A stretch of 64,000 nucleotides of DNA, from positions 2,133-66,132 of the forward strand of contig DASTCG010000026.1 of assembly GCA_035711385.1 (NCBI GenBank). Direction: 5' to 3'. Source of the DNA: Gaiellaceae bacterium (GTDB lineage Bacteria; Actinomycetota; Thermoleophilia; Gaiellales; Gaiellaceae). This document shows, piece by piece, positions 1 to 14,914 of this stretch (its first letter is position 1; every line of letters begins with the position of its first letter). The position numbers and the translations under genes were made by a program. The notes beneath the pieces were generated by a model, which saw nothing but the letters and a program-made list of their open reading frames with translations, did not search any database and had not been told where the DNA came from.

Positions 1-15
1 GTGTCGTTTCGGGGC

Positions 16-44
16 TTGCATCTCCCCAGGCATCGCCCTAGTGT
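16..44 (+). promoter_or_regulatory. sigma-70-like promoter of RNA copy 1 (TTGCAT-17 nt-TAGTGT)
   Basis: The -35 hexamer at 16-21 and -10 hexamer at 39-44 have a 17-nt spacer. Both hexamers sit at exactly the same offset (+283) as the promoter-like hexamers of copy 2, although the spacer sequence is not conserved. Confidence 0.4.
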
Positions 45-49
45 CCTCC

Positions 50-206
50 CTGCGTCGAGCACGGGACGCGAGTAGGACGAACCCGATCCTGAGGGCTGTA
101 GCCGGAAGGCAAAAGTCACCAGGATCGGTGGACGAAAGCGGAACCGGCTCGGCGAACGATCTGGCGCAGAGGGGCTCTCGGGTTCCTCGGCGCCAGATCC
201 TTTTTT
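50..206 (+). ncRNA. structured RNA, copy 1 of a tandem pair (riboswitch-like leader or sRNA, class unassigned)
   Basis: About 90% identical over ~169 nt to 321-489. Closing helix CGUCGAGC (53-60) / GCUCGGCG (147-154). Two internal hairpins carry a GGACGAA(A)GC motif, plus a GGC-AAAA-GUC hairpin. It ends in an intrinsic terminator. The 5' end is estimated from the -10 box. Confidence 0.6.
158..206 (+). terminator. intrinsic terminator of RNA copy 1
   Basis: 10-bp stem GATCTGGCGC (158-167) / GCGCCAGATC (190-199) followed by T6 (201-206). There is no T-tract on the other side, so it is plus-strand specific. Confidence 0.75.
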
Positions 207-298
207 GTGTCCGTCGGTAGAGCGCACGCTCCCGAAAGCTGTAGAGATGTGAAAAACTGAACTTTTCGCAAATTGCGGGAAGTTGTTCTTCCGCGGTC

Positions 299-327
299 TT
301 GAAACCGTACGCTGCCGGGCCTAATGT
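299..327 (+). promoter_or_regulatory. sigma-70-like promoter of RNA copy 2 (TTGAAA-17 nt-TAATGT)
   Basis: -35 at 299-304 and -10 at 322-327 with a 17-nt spacer. It lies at the end of a lower-GC spacer (207-298). Confidence 0.45.
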
Positions 328-332
328 CCTCC

Positions 333-489
333 CTGCGTCGAGCACGGGACGCGAGTAGGACGAAGCAGATCCTGAGGGCCGTAGCCGGAAGGCGAAAGCC
401 AGCGGGATCGGTGGACGAAAGCGGAACCGGCTCGGCGAACGAACTGGCGCAGAGGTGCCTTCGGGTACCTAGGCGCCAGTTCGTTTTTC
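333..489 (+). ncRNA. structured RNA, copy 2 of the tandem pair; possible cis-regulatory leader of the 538..768 ORF
   Basis: Same architecture as copy 1: closing helix 336-343 / 430-437, GGC-GAAA-GCC GNRA hairpin at 391-400, terminator at 440-488. It ends 50 nt before the start of a small membrane-protein ORF. Confidence 0.6.
440..488 (+). terminator. intrinsic terminator of RNA copy 2
   Basis: Stem CGAACTGGCGC (440-450) / GCGCCAGTTCG (473-483) followed by T5 (484-488). Relative to copy 1, the T160-A197 pair becomes A443-T480, a compensatory change. Confidence 0.75.
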
Positions 490-537
490 TGGTTCGGTCG
501 CCTGGCTCGCCTTCGCCCCCGCTAGGATCGTCGCCGC

Positions 538-768
538 ATGCACCTGCGCCAGCCGAGCTTCGATCGAGGCGTGACCTCCTTCCTCTGGGCCGTCGGCCTC
601 GGCCTCTATCTCTGGCTCGGGATGCTCGCCGTCGGCGTGAACAAGGCAACGGCCTTCATCTTCAGCCTGCTGGCAGCGGGAGCGATCTTCCTCGTCGTCC
701 GCCTCTACGGCGGTCGCGAGGTGCGCAGGCCGGCTCAGTCGAGCAGCACGCGAGCCGGGAGACGGTGA
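538..768 (+). CDS. small membrane protein, two predicted TM helices (76 aa), hypothetical
   Basis: Strong GC3 codon bias in this frame. Two hydrophobic stretches (FLWAVGLGLYLWLGMLAV and AFIFSLLAAGAIFLVV). No family recognised. Confidence 0.55.
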   Translation: MHLRQPSFDRGVTSFLWAVGLGLYLWLGMLAVGVNKATAFIFSLLAAGAIFLVVRLYGGREVRRPAQSSSTRAGRR

Positions 769-938
769 TCCCCGGCGAGCGCGCCGACCAGGCGGCGCGC
801 GAGCTCTCCGCCGAGTGCCGCCTCGAGCCGGTCACGCGCGTGCGGCTTTGCCTCCGCGAGGCATGAGACGCGGGCGCAGTGGTCGAGGAGACGATCGACG
901 GCCCTCCCCTCTTCGGGCGGCAGCGGCAGGATGATCAC
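735..938 (-). CDS. hypothetical small protein (67 aa)
   Basis: GTG-start ORF with good GC3 bias. No recognisable domain and no clear SD. It converges on and overlaps 538..768 by 34 nt. Confidence 0.3.
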   Translation of the reverse strand: MIILPLPPEEGRAVDRLLDHCARVSCLAEAKPHARDRLEAALGGELARRLVGALAGDHRLPARVLLD

Positions 939-1040
939 GGCACTCTGTCTATCGTCGGGGCGGTCGTGGGCGCCGATCCCTGGCGGGAGGGACGCCCGGG
1001 CGGTCCGAACCCGCCGAAACCGAATCGACTCTGAAGAAAG

Positions 1041-1556
1041 CTAGTACGAGATGAGTGAGTGGAGCGGGTACTTCGACAGACGCTCCCGCCCGCCGAGGAA
1101 GGTCAGCTCGATGATGAAGTTGACGCCGACCACCACCCCCCCGAGCTGCTCGACCAGGCCGCCGATCGCCTCGACGGTTCCTCCCGTTGCGAGCACGTCG
1201 TCATGGATGACGACGCGCGCGCCGGCCCCGATCGCGTCGGCGTTCAGCTCGAGCGCGTTCTGGCCGTACTCGAGCGCGTAGGTCGCGCTGACCGTCTCCG
1301 GCGGAAGCTTGCCCGGGCGGCGGGCCGGCACGAACCCGCACGGCACCTCCTTTGCGATCGCCGCCCCGAGGATGAAGCCCCGCGCCTCTGCGCCGAGGAC
1401 GAGGTCCGGGCGCTGCTCCCGCGTCCAGGTCGCGAGCTCGTCCACCGTCTGAGCCAGTGCCTCGGGGTCGCGCAGAAGTGGACTCACGTCCTTGAAACCC
1501 ACGCCGGGCTCGGGCCAGTCGGGCACCTCCCGGACTCGCGTCTTCAAGTCGATCAC
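1041..1556 (-). CDS. apt: adenine phosphoribosyltransferase
   Basis: Full-length match to the Apt pattern: FKDVSPLL, GAEARGF, PRPP motif VVIHDDVLATGGT. Confidence 0.95.
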   Translation of the reverse strand: MIDLKTRVREVPDWPEPGVGFKDVSPLLRDPEALAQTVDELATWTREQRPDLVLGAEARGFILGAAIAKEVPCGFVPARRPGKLPPETVSATYALEYGQNALELNADAIGAGARVVIHDDVLATGGTVEAIGGLVEQLGGVVVGVNFIIELTFLGGRERLSKYPLHSLISY

Positions 1557-2233
1557 GACGCTGCAACCTTACGCAGGGAGCGCCAGAACAGGAGCTGCGA
1601 CAGCTCCTGGGCATGCTCGGCGAGCAGCGCGAGGTCGTCGAGGCCGCCCTGGCGGCGCTCGGTGTTTCTCGAGCGCAGCGACGGCGCGACGACCGTCTGG
1701 AGGAGGCCGACCTCCCGCTCGGCGGCGGACCGGAACGAGCGGAGGTGGCGGCCGTCGATGCCGAACCGTGCGAGCTTCGCGCAGGCGGCCGCGATCTCGG
1801 CCTCGCCCTCGCGGTAGAGGCGCTCTCCGCCGTCCACACGCGACTCGAGGAGGCCGAACTCCTCGAGCTGCCGGGCGAGCGACGGCGTGAGGCCGGCGCG
1901 TTCGCAGAGCTCGGCGAGGTCGATCTCGGCCTCGGCGTCGGCCGTGCGGCGGCGGCGGGTCGTCGCGGCCGTCGCCGCGAGCTCCTGGCGGATCACCCGC
2001 AGCGGCAGGAACTCGTCGCGCTGGAGCCGGAGAATCGTCCTGAGCCGGTCGACGTCATCCGTGCCGAAGAGGCGGTACCGGCCTGGCGTCCGACGCGGCG
2101 CGAGCAGGCCCTGGTCTTCGAGGTAGCGAATCTTCGAGATCGAGATGTCGGGGAACTCCTCGCGGAGCAGTCGGCAGACCGCGCCGATCGTGAGCGGGCG
2201 CTCGTCGTCCTGGGTAGCCGCCGCGGTGGTCAT
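1553..2233 (-). CDS. MerR-family transcriptional regulator (FtsR / Rv1828-like)
   Basis: N-terminal MerR HTH (TIGAVCRLL...ISKIRYLEDQGLL...TPGRYRLF). 4-nt overlaps with neighbours. Sits downstream of the FHA gene, as in the mycobacterial garA-Rv1828 arrangement. Confidence 0.85.
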   Translation of the reverse strand: MTTAAATQDDERPLTIGAVCRLLREEFPDISISKIRYLEDQGLLAPRRTPGRYRLFGTDDVDRLRTILRLQRDEFLPLRVIRQELAATAATTRRRRTADAEAEIDLAELCERAGLTPSLARQLEEFGLLESRVDGGERLYREGEAEIAAACAKLARFGIDGRHLRSFRSAAEREVGLLQTVVAPSLRSRNTERRQGGLDDLALLAEHAQELSQLLFWRSLRKVAAS

Positions 2234-2691
2234 TGCTCCAAGAAGGTCAACCGATACTTGCCGATCTGCAACTCGTCGCCGTCTGCGAGCGGCGACGAGT
2301 CGATGCGCCGCCGGTTGACGAACGTCCCGTTCAGGCTGCCTTCGTCCTCGATCACGAACCCATCGTCTGCCCGGAGGAGAACTGCGTGCTTGCGCGAGAC
2401 GGTGACGTCGTCGAGGAAGATGTCGCAGTCAGGGGAGCGCCCGATGGTCGTCCGGTCGCCCGACGGAACGAAGTGCTCCCCGGCCCGACCGCCGCCGGAA
2501 CGGACGACGAGCGCGGGGCCCTCCATCCCGAGCTCCTCGAGCGGCGACTGCTCGTCGAGCTCCTCGGGCGTGAAGGCCACCGTCGTGTCGGCACCGGGCG
2601 GCTCGCGGACGAGCGCCGTGCCGCACTTCGAGCAGAAGTTCGCGGTCTCCGGGTTCTGGAACCCGCACTCAGGGCAGTAGACGTGCGGCAA
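2230..2691 (-). CDS. FHA-domain protein with N-terminal zinc ribbon (GarA/OdhI-like)
   Basis: CPECG...CSKCG ribbon. The C-terminal FHA signature is TIGRSPDCDIFLDDVTVSRKHA...DEGSLNGTFVN. A DTTVAF segment resembles the GarA ETTSVF phospho-acceptor motif. Confidence 0.85.
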   Translation of the reverse strand: MPHVYCPECGFQNPETANFCSKCGTALVREPPGADTTVAFTPEELDEQSPLEELGMEGPALVVRSGGGRAGEHFVPSGDRTTIGRSPDCDIFLDDVTVSRKHAVLLRADDGFVIEDEGSLNGTFVNRRRIDSSPLADGDELQIGKYRLTFLEQ

Positions 2692-2700
2692 CGAGCGCCT

Positions 2701-2955
2701 CTAGCTCTCGTTGGGCGGAGTCGCCTTGCCGGCCAGGATCGCCGCCAGCCGGTCGACGTCGACCTCTCCGAGCGGCCCCTCCCCCGCTCCCTCCTGCTGC
2801 TGGAGCCGCGAGACGAGCTCTGCGCGCAGGATGTCGATCTTCCCGTGAAGCAGGCGGCGCCGGTACGACACCTCCTGCTCCTCGCGCTGGAGGTCGTCGA
2901 TGAGCGACTTCAGCTCGGAGTCGGAGAGGGATGCGAGATCGGGCAGCGGTTCCAT
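2701..2955 (-). CDS. small coiled-coil protein, RsiG-like (84 aa)
   Basis: Contains EQEVSYRRRLLHGKID, i.e. E-x3-S-x2-R-x3-H-x3-D. This is one residue away from the c-di-GMP-binding E-x3-S-x2-R-x3-Q-x3-D motif of RsiG anti-sigma factors. Confidence 0.6.
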   Translation of the reverse strand: MEPLPDLASLSDSELKSLIDDLQREEQEVSYRRRLLHGKIDILRAELVSRLQQQEGAGEGPLGEVDVDRLAAILAGKATPPNES

Positions 2956-2996
2956 GGAGGCCTTTCGTTCGGGGGCTCAGTTAACCAGTCGGACGC

Positions 2997-5543
2997 CTAA
3001 GGGTCAATCTCAACTTGAGTGTTGGGGCCTGCGTTGCTTGCGTCGCCCTCTCCATTCTGCAGGACGTCCTCGACGAGGCCGCGAAGCTCCTGCTCGAGCT
3101 CGGCGGATGCGTCCTCGCTCTCGCCCTCGGCGTACACGTGGACGAGCGGCTCGTCGGGATCGGGAAGCACCTGCGCCCAGCCGCGCTTGTCGTAGACCTT
3201 GATCCCGTCGCGAAGATCGACCTCGCGGTCCTTGAGCCGCTCGGTGAGCACCCGCATGACGAGTCCTTTCTGCGCCCACGGGCACGGAACCTGCCTGTGG
3301 ACGACGTGCGACACGGGGAGCTCGGCGACGAGCTCGGAGAGCGGCCGGTCGACCGGTGCGAAAAGCTCGAGGAGCTTGCAGAGACTCGCAATCGCGTCGT
3401 AGGCGGGAAGGAACTCCGGGAACACGTATCCGCCGCCCACGGCGCCGGCGAAGATCACGCCGTCCTCGGCTGCGGCCTTCGTGAGCTCGGCGAGCGACGC
3501 CGGCGTGCGCACGATCTCCAGGCTGCTCCCCTCGACGAGGCGCTCGACCTGGCTCGTGACGGTGACCGGGAACGCGAGCTTCCCGACGCGCCCGTCGCTT
3601 CCGATCAGGCGGAGGAAGAGCAGGAGGGCCTGCTCGACCGGGATCTCCCGCGCCTGGTCGTCCACCAGGTAGAGGCGTTCCGCGGCCCGGTCGAAGACGA
3701 CGCCCAGGTCGGCCCCGACCGCGCCCACGAGCCGCTTCGTCTGTCCGACGAGGCTCCTGAGGGTCGCCGTCTCGCCGGGAGGGAGGTCGGGCGTGAAGGC
3801 GTGCGCCGCCACCGCCTCGACGGCGAGCGGGCCGAGCACCAGCGGCAGCACGAACGACGCTGCCGAGTAGCCGTAGTCGACGACGATCCGGAAGCCGCGC
3901 CTGCGGATCTGCTCGACGTCGAGGTTCGACAGGAGGTCGTCGGCGTATTCCTCGCGCGCGCGGGCCGGGTAGCTGATACCGCCCACGTCCGCCGCCCCCA
4001 CCGAGCGCAGCTCGTGCCGGCTGAAGTGCTTCTCGATCTCCTTCTGGAACGAGGCGGAGGCCTCGATCCCCGGGTGCTCGAAGAACTGGATCTTGACGGC
4101 CTCGGGATCGGCGCTCGAGAGCCCGACGTGGAAGCCGGCGTCGTAGCCGTGGCTCTTGAGGAGATGGCGCGCGACGGCGGCCGGCAGAACACGCAGGTCG
4201 GCGACGTCTACGCCGGTCGAGTTGAGGCCGGAGATCATCGCCCGCTTGATCATCCGACAGGCCGGCGCGGACTCGCGGCTCGCGACGACGCGGGCGCCCC
4301 GCTTCAGAGCCGTTCCCATCGCGGCGGCGACGCGGAGCGCCAAGTCCGGCGTCAGGTCGACGTTCACGAGCCCGGTGATGCCTCCCTCGCCGAACAGCCG
4401 CGGGCTGGAGCGCGATTCGAAGATGAGATTCTCGTAGACCTGCGACCCGGACTCGACCTCCTTGAACGGGAAGATCCGGATGCCGGGCATGACGACGCTC
4501 TCGGCGCCGATGGTGACCTCGTCGCCGATCGCGACGTCCTCGTGGATGCGCACGTGCGCGCGGATGTCGCAGTTCCTCCCCACGATCGCGTTCTCGATCA
4601 GCGCGCTGCGGCCGACGTGCGTGGACGCGTCGATCACCGAGGCGACGGTGCGCGCACGCTCGCGGAGCGTGACGCTCGACGAGAGCACCGAGTACGGCCC
4701 GACGGTCGCGTCGGCGCCGATCCGGCAGTAGTTCCCGAGGTAGGCCGGGCCCTCGATGCGGTCGATGTCGTCGATCTCGACCCCCTCGCCCAGCCAGACG
4801 TTGCCGCGAAGCCGCACTCCCGGGATGTCGAGCTGGACGCTTCCGTCGAGGGCGTCGAAGTTCGCCTGACGGTACTGGGCCAGGTTCCCGATGTCCTGCC
4901 AGTAGCCGTCGACGACATAGCCGTACATGGGTCGACCCATCTCGAGGAGGAGCGGGAAGAGCTCCTTCGAGAAGTCGTACGGCCGATCGGTGGGAACGTG
5001 GCTCAGCACCTCGGGCTCGAGGACGTAGACGCCGGTGTTGATGGTGTCCGAGAACACCTGGCTCCAGGAGGGCTTCTCGAGGAACCGCTCGATGCGGCCG
5101 TCGCTGTCGGTGACGACGATCCCGAACTCGAGCGGGTTCTCGACCGACTTGAGCGCGATCGTCGCGGCGGCGCCCTGCTCCTTGTGGAACTCGATGAGCT
5201 TCGTCAGGTCGAAGTCGCAGAGGGCGTCGCCCGAGATCACGAGGAACGTGTCGTCGAGGCGGCCGCTCGCGAGCCCCACCGAGCCGGCGGTGCCGAGCGG
5301 TGACTCTTCGACGGAGTACTCCATCCTCAGTCCGATGCTCTCGCCGTCTCCGAAGTAGCTGCGGATCGCCTGCGGCAAGAAGGCGACGGTGACGATCACG
5401 TCCTCGAGGCCGTGAGAGCGCAGGAGCTCGAGGATGTGCTCCATGCACGGCTTCCCCACGATGGGCACCATCGGCTTGGGCTGGTTCGAGGTCAGCGGGC
5501 GGAGGCGCGTCCCCTCCCCGCCTGCCATCACGACCGCCTTCAC
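2997..5543 (-). CDS. sugar-phosphate nucleotidyltransferase (GMPP-like) fused to a degenerate phosphomannomutase/PGM-like domain (848 aa)
   Basis: N-terminus [17 protein letters not shown], then left-handed beta-helix repeats and a four-domain PGM/PMM fold. Start set at GTG 5543 (GTGA overlap with the upstream stop). The longer ORF to 5684 is an Arg-rich extension running into pgsA. Confidence 0.85.
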
Positions 5544-14048: not shown

Positions 14049-14075
14049 AAAAAGCCGCCAGTTGCGGCGGCTTTT
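14049..14075. terminator. bidirectional-type intrinsic terminator after tRNA-Pro
   Basis: A5-GCCGCC-loop-GGCGGC-T4. On the minus strand it reads stem-loop plus U5 immediately after the tRNA 3' end. Confidence 0.7.
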
Positions 14076-14078
14076 CGA

Positions 14079-14153
14079 TCGGGGCGCCGAGATTTGAACT
14101 CGGGACCTCTAGTCCCCCAGACTAGCGCGCTAACCAGGCTGCGCCACGCCCCG
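14079..14153 (-). tRNA. tRNA-Pro (anticodon GGG)
   Basis: Hand-folded 75-nt cloverleaf: acceptor CGGGGCG/CGCCCCG, D stem GCGC/GCGC, anticodon stem CUAGU/ACUAG with loop CUGGGGG, T stem CCGAG/CUCGG with UUCAAAU loop, discriminator A. No encoded CCA. Confidence 0.95.
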
Positions 14154-14392: not shown

Positions 14393-14701
14393 GAACATCT
14401 CCGGGGAACTTTACGCCGGGCGCCGGGCCGCCTCGTCGTCCCAGCGGGATGATCCGCCGGGCTCCCAGGCTGCGCCTGTGAGCTCAGGAGACGCCTCGTA
14501 GGAGGTGGCCACTCGTCGGGCGTCACGAATTTCACGGAAAGACCGCATGTTTTGACCGTGGTCAACGCAAGCTTCACGGTGTCGGAGCGTCTTGAATTGG
14601 GAGGACAAGCACACTGCTTGTTGTCCACAGCCCTCCTCTGCGGCACCCTCAGAGATGGCTCGGACACGGAAGTTGCCAGTCCCGACGATATCCACAGCCC
14701 T

Positions 14702-14914
14702 GTGGAAAACTCCGAGAATCCCGGAAAACCGCCACCCGACGACGACGACGGGGTGAAGAAGCCGCCCGGCGAGTTCGTCAACGACGAGCTCGAGAAGCAG
14801 ACCAAGCGGTTTCTCCAAGAGGTCAAGGACCTCGCACGTCGCCGCCGGGAGGCGGAAGACGACGTCGAGCCGGGCCCGCCGCCCGGCCCGGTTCAGCGTT
14901 CGAGGCGTCGGTAG
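14702..14914 (+). CDS. possible small acidic/Pro-rich protein (70 aa), weak call
   Basis: GTG 14702. GC3 bias is strong only in the 3' two-thirds (from about 14740). No domain. It overlaps the 3' end of the convergent XRE gene by 22 nt. Confidence 0.25.
   Translation: MENSENPGKPPPDDDDGVKKPPGEFVNDELEKQTKRFLQEVKDLARRRREAEDDVEPGPPPGPVQRSRRR

Follow-up and report, generated by a model that had tools for sequence, protein, structure and literature searches.

Two tandem genes of a candidate family of stand-alone small structured RNAs in uncultured Gaiellales

A stretch of 64,000 nucleotides (nt) from a Gaiellaceae bacterium (GenBank assembly GCA_035711385.1, contig DASTCG010000026.1, positions 2,133 to 66,132 of the forward strand) starts with two near-identical tandem units upstream of a gene for a small protein with two transmembrane segments (2-TM protein). 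The whole stretch is called the window here, and coordinates given without a locus name refer to it. An earlier reading of these letters, the original prediction, had described the units as two copies of a structured RNA that fitted no known class, each with a promoter at its start and a terminator at its end. The analysis presented here suggests that positions 51-206 and 334-488 are probably two tandem genes of a stand-alone small RNA (sRNA) family of the sibling type. The family as a whole likely represents previously uncatalogued small structured RNAs of the Gaiellales (class Thermoleophilia, Actinomycetota), which are abundant and almost wholly uncultured soil bacteria. It would thereby be a new family within a known kind of RNA, the stand-alone structured sRNAs.

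The repeat pair and its RNA family

The two units are direct repeats of 169 nt (37-205 and 320-488) with a period of 283 nt and a sequence identity of 91%, or 89.9% over the boundaries drawn originally (38-206 and 321-489), in agreement with the identity of about 90% stated before. Also as stated, the spacer in between (207-320) is unrelated to the units and poorer in GC, with a content of 0.54 compared to 0.63 in the units and 0.70 in the window. In the predicted fold, each unit forms one long irregular hairpin, behind which come a strong terminator hairpin and a T-run, so that the intrinsic terminator assigned to each unit is retained; the folding energies are -88.2 and -89.7 kcal/mol for copy 1 and copy 2, with z = -5.95 and -6.20 versus shuffled controls. 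There are 17 differences between the copies, including a double change that preserves a pair in the terminator, i.e., the U-A pair 160-197 of copy 1 becomes A-U at 443-480 in copy 2, and the compensatory exchange reported at this position is real. An internal open reading frame (ORF) at 41-220 is absent from the record as a called gene, and the compensatory changes argue against it being coding. The window edge truncates the upstream promoter elements of copy 1. The sequence further to the left was sought via contigs matching the apt gene exactly, all of which are shorter than 2 kb and broken near the repeat.

The family was collected by one genome scan with a pattern built on the two internal-loop strands of the RNA, and all counts are lower bounds. 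The scan gave at least 120 stretches, and a pattern-free profile search (nhmmer) of the fetched loci resulted in at least 176 copies in about 120 loci. Among the 125 loci listed, each of 8 kb, 86 contain one copy, 27 contain two and 12 contain three. Four subtypes, A-D, make up the family; two copies of the divergent subtype D follow directly after a subtype-B copy, generating arrays of three in 13 of the listed loci. Multiple paralogous copies per genome, as they are looked for in sibling sRNAs, are present, with at least four of them on one 1.08-Mb contig of the metagenome-assembled genome (MAG) MFD02416.bin.2.62. The matches listed derive from uncultured MAGs labelled Gaiellaceae, Gaiella, Gaiellales, Thermoleophilia or with unspecific actinobacterial names, with three exceptions, of which one Bacillota match is a false positive and two contigs carry Gaiellales synteny. 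These two, L056 (DASRPJ010000267.1) and L070 (DATEOQ010000162.1), belong to MAGs labelled Thermoanaerobaculia and Candidatus Eisenbacteria, respectively, show the sRNA next to the 2-TM/apt synteny of Gaiellales and are probably mis-binned. BLAST searches of plasmids and phages gave no family copies, and the eight pattern matches in the viral collection IMG/VR are all due to chance, none of them matching the covariance model. Within the window, the covariance model R1 finds the two copies only.

The RNA is a single irregular hairpin with a core of about 105 nt, which extends to about 155 nt in the window copies when the terminator is included. Its structure was derived as an RNAalifold consensus from a MAFFT alignment of 137 distinct members that had not been fitted to structure. 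In this alignment 93.3% of the cells are paired compared to 30-33% when the partners are slid by 1-3 columns, and compensatory double changes are found in 21 of the 33 pairs, comprising 413 cells, a result matched by none of 500 shuffles. An alignment made with the covariance model and including subtypes B, C and D has 96.3% of the cells paired and compensatory changes in 17 of 30 pairs. Moreover, the structural model gives subtype D 64-82 bits, compared with 23-47 bits from a sequence-only hidden Markov model. Conservation of the element and of its helices in related genomes, on which the original prediction depended, is thus found in a large covarying family.

The outermost helix P1 comprises 11 base pairs (bp) with a bulged A (GCRCCGAGC-A-CGG / CCG-GCUCGGYGC) and is the closing helix CGUCGAGC/GCUCGGCG proposed before, which is real and covaries. 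Inward of P1 there is a short GCGC/GCGC helix and next to it an internal loop formed by the almost invariant strands GAGUAGGNCGAA and GGACGAAA, with the invariant, purine-rich stretches GAGUAGG and GGACGAAAG facing each other. A covarying helix of 7-9 bp lies beyond this loop. The apical part starts with a 3-bp stem, to which a 4x4 loop (YGUA / GAAR) is joined, and ends in a hairpin of 3 bp with a GGAA or GCAA cap; in the apical GCC-GGAA-GGC hairpin GC<->CG swaps occur in 61 and 30 of the 137 sequences. Some members have an extra apical hairpin, and subtype D has its apical loops replaced (UUCG), retaining P1 and GGACGAA. This consensus revises the inner part of the fold suggested first. The two hairpins thought to repeat the GGACGAA motif are actually opposite strands of one internal loop in the single long hairpin. 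A GNRA-type hairpin exists, not in the proposed form GGC-GAAA-GCC; covariation backs GCC-GGAA-GGC instead. From the helix seen in T97/A121 versus C380/G404, T97/C380 falls into an internal loop, and U90-A121, given at the time as an alternative pairing, is the true pair.

In both internal loops one strand has AGUA or GUA and the opposite strand GAA, and from knowledge of RNA motifs this looks like the signature of an S-turn, as in the loop E or sarcin-ricin motif of ribosomal RNAs (rRNAs). In contrast to the family described here, that motif is a structural building block and not a family, and the Rfam models of 5S and large-subunit rRNA gave no match. The sequence GAGUAGGACG, the form present in both window copies, may also resemble a stretch of actinobacterial 5S rRNA. 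A hammerhead-like identity (CUGAGG...GAAA) was also considered; by inspection the core does not fit, and there is no Rfam match at E<=1.

The class of the RNA stays unassigned, as the original prediction had it. Rfam 15 was searched with cmscan at the gathering threshold and at E<=1 or E<=10. Positions 1-3000 gave no match at E<=1, the whole window gave transfer RNA (tRNA) alone, and at E<=10 only chance matches were obtained, i.e., microRNA models on the terminator and a 13-bit partial match to the Glutamine riboswitch. For a type-A tandem locus and a type-B/D locus cmscan resulted in nothing credible. Furthermore, the literature on non-coding RNA, riboswitches or sRNA of Gaiellales, Gaiella and Thermoleophilia was searched and no relevant description was found; neither there nor in Rfam was any Gaiellales non-coding RNA described.

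The number of copies and their tandem and inverted arrangement could also be explained by a non-functional repeat or a mobile element, such as a cassette similar to a miniature inverted-repeat transposable element. However, the compensatory changes preserving the helices are extensive, the units occupy syntenic positions across species in which the flanking proteins are only 42-60% identical, and the plasmid, phage and viral collections do not contain the family. Moreover, neither terminal repeats nor a transposase were noticed in the inspected flanks, for which no dedicated search was made. This origin of the repeats is considered extremely unlikely.

Transcription units and neighbouring genes

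For a survey of promoters the 100 nt upstream of 158 full-length copies were aligned. The -10 motif TANNNT is present at a fixed offset in 147 of the 158 copies and within ±2 in 157, and the CTTG of the -35 element is found 17 nt upstream in 155. Further upstream, a palindrome GCA[ACT]NNNGC (typically CGCAAATTGCG) is located at -64 to -67 in 127 and at -80 to -48 in 136 copies, while shuffled controls contain none. This layout of promoter and palindrome holds in all four subtypes, in both tandem members and in inverted units. The hexamers pointed out originally (TTGCAT/TAGTGT and TTGAAA/TAATGT) are both separated by 17-nt spacers, and their -35 and -10 positions are kept in about 155 of the 158 members. 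These alignments strongly support a prediction in which each copy is its own transcription unit with a housekeeping-type promoter (-35 cTTGnn, 17 nt, -10 TAnnnT) and the palindrome at around -65. The predicted start sites, T51/G52 and T334/G335, precede P1 by 1-2 nt. As the position of the -10 box sets the start just before P1, the C-rich stretch at 45-50, interpreted before as an anti-Shine-Dalgarno-like 5' segment, is situated after the -10 box and ahead of the predicted start and would be an essentially untranscribed discriminator, mostly outside the RNA.

At the other end of the unit, most members have GAAUUUUUUU directly after P1, which means that the whole RNA would act as the terminator hairpin. 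The window lineage and subtype B have an additional, separate terminator hairpin. Judged by sequence, a short non-coding unit is thus bounded by a promoter and a terminator of its own, as in stand-alone sRNAs. Inspection of the family revealed no conserved alternative pairing that could form an antiterminator. An antiterminator formed by the 5' C-rich segment and the 5' arm of the terminator was considered and rejected, since the segment is upstream of the start and most relatives do not have the extra terminator. Runs of at least five T occur four times in the 64-kb window, namely in the two sRNA terminators, after a tRNA gene and opposite an A-run within the sRNA promoter region, and U-tract terminators seem to be reserved for stable RNA genes in this window. 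The run belonging to the tRNA gene (14079-14153) follows it at 14049-14053 on the minus strand.

Two further observations concern the flanks of the units. The motif GGWCC, mostly as UGGUCC, is found within 6 nt past the U-run in 84 of 161 copies, whereas shuffled controls contain 4. Its complement is the invariant GGAC in the internal loop, and weak versions of the motif are present in the window at 207-214 (GTGTCC) and 490-497 (TGGTTCGG). Upstream of the first type-A promoter, 26-29 of 162 members have a DnaA-box-like cluster consisting of TTGTCCACA, about 12-20 nt, and then CTGTGGAAATGTGGA[A/C]AA. It is located at about 3380-3425 in L009, 3488-3530 in L008 and 1195-1240 in L096, is present as a degenerate remnant in the window (Table 1) and moves together with the sRNA unit in inverted loci. 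A separate DnaA-box-like trio lies at 14621-14709 of the window (TTGTCCACA at 14621, TATCCACA at about 14689 and CTGTGGAAAA at about 14700). In total the window has 9 DnaA-like boxes with at most one mismatch, where 2.6 are expected by chance, and 0 of 100 shuffles reach this number.

The gene following copy 2 is the 76-amino-acid (aa) 2-TM ORF noted originally, with 49 nt between the end of copy 2 and the ATG at 538. Its product has 172 homologs, one of them labelled Gaiellaceae, belongs to no Pfam family and has a length of 73-80 aa in most homologs. Genes at the loci were called by tblastn of syntenic proteins and by the GC content at third codon positions, as naive clustering of ORFs was confounded by shadow ORFs of high-GC DNA. 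On longer contigs the order is a group-2-like sigma factor, a principal-type sigma factor (about 351 aa, divergent), a long intergenic region, the 2-TM gene and apt. A MerR/Rv1828-like regulator, an FHA/zinc-ribbon protein, an RsiG-like protein and a large nucleotidyltransferase/phosphomutase (NTP-transferase type) follow in conserved order. About 75 of 139 listed pattern matches adjoin a homolog of the 2-TM protein, at protein identities down to 42%. In L008 and L009 two tandem copies lie in the intergenic region between the sigma factor and 2-TM genes. In L006, L012 and L014 a single copy is placed on the other strand, directed at sigA instead of the 2-TM gene, and this was the first hint that the element is no leader of the 2-TM gene. 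Overall the unit is inverted in seven listed loci, where it shares the direction of sigA and diverges from the 2-TM gene.

In 56 of 64 loci a TANNNT box, in most cases TAGGAT, stands upstream of the 2-TM gene with its end 5-11 nt from the start codon, and there is no separate Shine-Dalgarno sequence. As this -10-type box stands so close to the start codon, the transcript is predicted to be leaderless, and the gene looks as if it had its own promoter downstream of the sRNA terminator. A similar box precedes the start codon of the acyl-CoA dehydrogenase genes at the inspected type-C loci, with TAGGAT in L126 and CAGGAT in L137. Two further observations were made in this neighbourhood. On the sigA strand, the conserved motif CTTGACATAACGnnCGTTA is found upstream of the principal sigma factor gene (at about 3232-3256 in L009, 3548-3572 in L006, 2606-2630 in L012 and 2495-2520 in L014) and resembles a -35-like TTGACA followed by a short palindrome. 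An ORF of 67 aa on the minus strand (735-938) overlaps the 3' end of the 2-TM gene; it is a called gene in L001, L002 and L009-L011, has no Pfam family and may or may not be a real gene.

Other paralogs are found in different surroundings, and roughly 90 of the 176 listed copies have no adjacent 2-TM gene. Type-C copies precede acyl-CoA dehydrogenase genes by 26-150 nt, arrays of three lie 550-830 nt before a gene for an MFS transporter, and other paralogs face convergent genes or another copy. One paralog is placed between an RNase R-like gene (rnr) and smpB, with canonical transfer-messenger RNA (tmRNA) just past smpB (L049, 4509-5880; L118, 1907-3267).

These contexts bear on the reading put forward in the original prediction, i.e., that the element is a cis-acting transcription attenuator or riboswitch for the downstream gene, with the tandem copies as two sensors in series. 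Several observations agree with it: about 68 of the about 75 type-A copies precede the 2-TM gene in the same direction, the type-C copies are similarly close to their downstream gene, the invariant internal loops are akin to aptamer cores and a terminator follows each unit. Terminating riboswitches, including the tandem glycine riboswitch, likewise combine a conserved structured element with a terminator behind it; they mostly precede a gene, and tandem arrangements occur. However, where a riboswitch would share one leader with its gene, every copy has a promoter of its own, and as this promoter is complete in each tandem copy family-wide, two sensors in series are not what is found either. 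No antiterminator is apparent and P1 itself is the terminator stem, leaving no expression platform, and the orientation can be flipped, as seen in the seven inverted loci. Moreover, the genes downstream are functionally unrelated (2-TM protein, acyl-CoA dehydrogenase, smpB, MFS transporter) and carry a -10 box of their own at a distance that fits leaderless transcripts. Because of the own promoters, the inversions, the leaderless 2-TM gene, the varied contexts and the missing antiterminator, the attenuating riboswitch is ruled out as the main explanation and retains a small residual probability. The fallback offered for copy 1, a stand-alone sRNA, fits both copies.

The position of the sRNA next to a small hydrophobic-protein gene, in either orientation, also recalls type I toxin-antitoxin modules, in which the sRNA would be the antitoxin to the membrane protein. 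This is regarded as very improbable. The 2-TM protein of 73-80 aa is conserved order-wide as a syntenic neighbour of sigA and apt, and the copies without an adjacent 2-TM gene have no such partner. Conserved complementarity to the messenger RNA (mRNA) of the 2-TM protein was not seen by inspection, the only method applied here, apart from one 7-nt stretch that is not conserved.

Table 1. Positions of the sRNA genes, their signals and the adjoining gene in the window
Feature	Position	Strand	Basis
-35 hexamer TTGCAT, copy 1 (CTTG at 15-18)	16..21	+	CTTG at -35±1 from model position 1 in 155/158 members
-10 hexamer TAGTGT, copy 1; 17-nt spacer	39..44	+	TANNNT at -11 from model position 1 in 147/158, within ±2 in 157/158
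sRNA core, copy 1	51..157	+	R1 match 50-159, 110.9 bits, E 9e-22; predicted start T51/G52, inferred from -10 position
Closing helix P1, copy 1, bulged A	53-64 pairs with 144-154	+	Fold and covariation
Extra intrinsic terminator, copy 1 (hairpin 158-199, T-run 201-206)	158..206	+	Fold; compensatory pair 160-197
Degenerate remnant GCTGTAGAGATGTGAAAAA of CTGTGGAAATGTGGAAAAA upstream element	238..256	+	Suggested by comparison with upstream regions of L008, L009 and L040
Palindrome CGCAAATTGCG, -66 from copy 2, presumed transcription-factor site	267..277	.	Sole such site in window
-35 hexamer TTGAAA, copy 2	299..304	+	Sequence and family alignment
-10 hexamer TAATGT, copy 2; 17-nt spacer	322..327	+	Sequence and family alignment
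sRNA core, copy 2	334..440	+	R1 match 333-442, 108.6 bits, E 3e-21; predicted start T334/G335
Closing helix P1, copy 2	336-347 pairs with 427-437	+	Fold
Extra intrinsic terminator, copy 2 (hairpin 438-484, T-run 484-488)	438..488	+	Inverted repeat, fold
TAGGAT -10 box of 2-TM gene, 9 nt before ATG	523..528	+	TANNNT 5-11 nt before start codon in 56/64 homologous loci
Gene of 76-aa two-TM protein, conserved neighbour outside the RNA	538..768	+	172 homologs, no Pfam family

Possible modes of action and known RNA classes

In the explanation favoured here, the sequences strongly support separate genes, each transcribed from its own promoter with a predicted start 1-2 nt ahead of the closing helix. 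The unit would end at an intrinsic terminator, which is the added hairpin in the window lineage and the closing helix with the U-run in most relatives. The product is predicted to be a stable, closed rod-like hairpin with nearly invariant internal-loop strands and covarying helices. It would act in trans and not on the adjacent gene. The likeliest mode would be protein binding, either as a component of a ribonucleoprotein or as a decoy, because the invariant positions are purine-rich and S-turn-like, the apex is variable and there is no accessible pyrimidine-rich seed. The near-identical tandem copies would serve dosage, and all paralogs would be co-regulated by a factor binding to the shared palindrome. 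Our best guess from the sequences is thus a protein-binding RNA acting in trans.

Several points weigh against this explanation. Most type-A copies are located 30-480 nt upstream of the 2-TM gene and are co-directional with it, and read-through may couple them to this gene to some degree. The start sites, the function of the terminators and the ends of the RNA are all read from the DNA letters, and the GGWCC motif after the U-run could mean that the functional RNA continues beyond this run. Furthermore, the S-turn assignment derives solely from motif resemblance, and the conservation of TAGGNNGAA and GGTGGACGNAAGCG is in part imposed by the search pattern used to collect the family. The matches of the pattern-free nhmmer search show small deviations only from the loop sequences, such as GGACAAAAG or TAGATCGAA.

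Sibling sRNAs are known from several bacteria, e.g., LhrC1-5 in Listeria, Qrr1-5 in Vibrio and RsmX/Y/Z in Pseudomonas. The Gaiellales genes are organized like those of LhrC, Qrr and RsmX/Y/Z, i.e., there are several near-identical genes, often in tandem, each with its own promoter and intrinsic terminator and with a shared upstream regulator site. However, there is no sequence or structural similarity to these RNAs and no C-rich or GGA-loop seed. Unlike them, the Gaiellales RNA is one closed rod with invariant internal loops, and its closing helix mostly doubles as the terminator. The common gene organization is also what supports base pairing as the mode of action, in which the RNAs would be antisense to mRNAs in trans, like LhrC1-5, Qrr1-5 or PrrF1/2, and the copies would provide dosage or slightly different target ranges. 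We consider this possible but rather unlikely. The conserved nucleotides are purine-rich and are located on both strands of the internal loop instead of in an open loop or a tail, no C-rich or otherwise accessible seed is conserved, and the apical loops are GNRA or UUCG tetraloops. Moreover, the 7-nt complementarity to the 2-TM mRNA of the window is by inspection not kept at other loci.

A further comparison leads to RNAs directed at RNA polymerase. 6S RNA has a length of 150-200 nt and Ms1 of about 300 nt. Like 6S RNA (RF00013) and the mycobacterial Ms1, the Gaiellales RNA is a closed rod with a central non-canonical region, has a housekeeping-type promoter, adjoins the principal sigma factor gene and is probably abundant, judging by its promoter. 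It might therefore be considered a miniature analogue binding to the sigma-A holoenzyme or to core polymerase. The rod with its central non-Watson-Crick region between helices of about 15 and about 20 bp-equivalents, the strength of the promoter and the invariable position of the type-A copy in the intergenic region between sigA (or uppP) and the 2-TM gene, co-directional with sigA in the seven inverted loci, are in accordance with this idea. However, the core of about 105 nt is about half the size of these RNAs or less and thus well short of their lengths. Both strands of its centre are invariant in sequence, the consensus shows part of it paired, and the prediction is a structured region, not the large open bubble of 6S RNA. 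In addition, the Rfam models of 6S RNA and Ms1 give no match even at E<=10, and copy numbers as high as three at a locus, with at least four copies on one contig, are atypical for 6S RNA. Such a polymerase-directed regulator is improbable.

The apical part of the RNA is similar to helix 8 of the signal recognition particle (SRP) RNA (4.5S RNA, RF00169), with a 3-bp stem, a 4x4 symmetric loop, a second 3-bp stem and a GGAA tetraloop, and both RNAs have paired ends. In contrast to SRP RNA, the loops YGUA/GAAR differ from the universal SRP motif, subtype D has a different apical part and other members have insertions in it, and there is no match to RF00169. The bacterial small SRP RNA is recognized by its helix-8 loop sequences and its single copy, and the family shows neither. 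Identities as SRP, 5S, 6S RNA or tmRNA were rejected as no model matches, and the canonical tmRNA is a separate gene beside smpB in L049 and L118.

Going beyond protein binding as such, the RNA might be a subunit or a high-affinity decoy of a protein machine central to the physiology of Gaiellales, under the control of a dedicated palindrome-binding factor. Examples would be a miniature regulator of RNA polymerase or of a sigma factor or, alternatively, a trans-acting aptamer with an S-turn core sensing a metabolite; a ligand-sensing RNA is also ranked among the rival mechanisms. This extended reading is tentative, and we regard it as doubtful. If it were true, it would represent a new functional class of bacterial RNA.

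As a summary, the family has features that are usual for RNAs with a core role. It is kept in more than 100 species-level MAGs with several paralogs per genome, has a strong and uniform promoter with a private operator site, and the proteins encoded next to it are less conserved than its internal loops. The analysis also gives reason for caution, as a structured element with a terminator before a gene does not make a riboswitch when the copies carry their own promoters and the gene is leaderless. For the Gaiellales, the RNA, its presumed operator and the syntenic locus beside sigA offer an entry point to regulation in this order.

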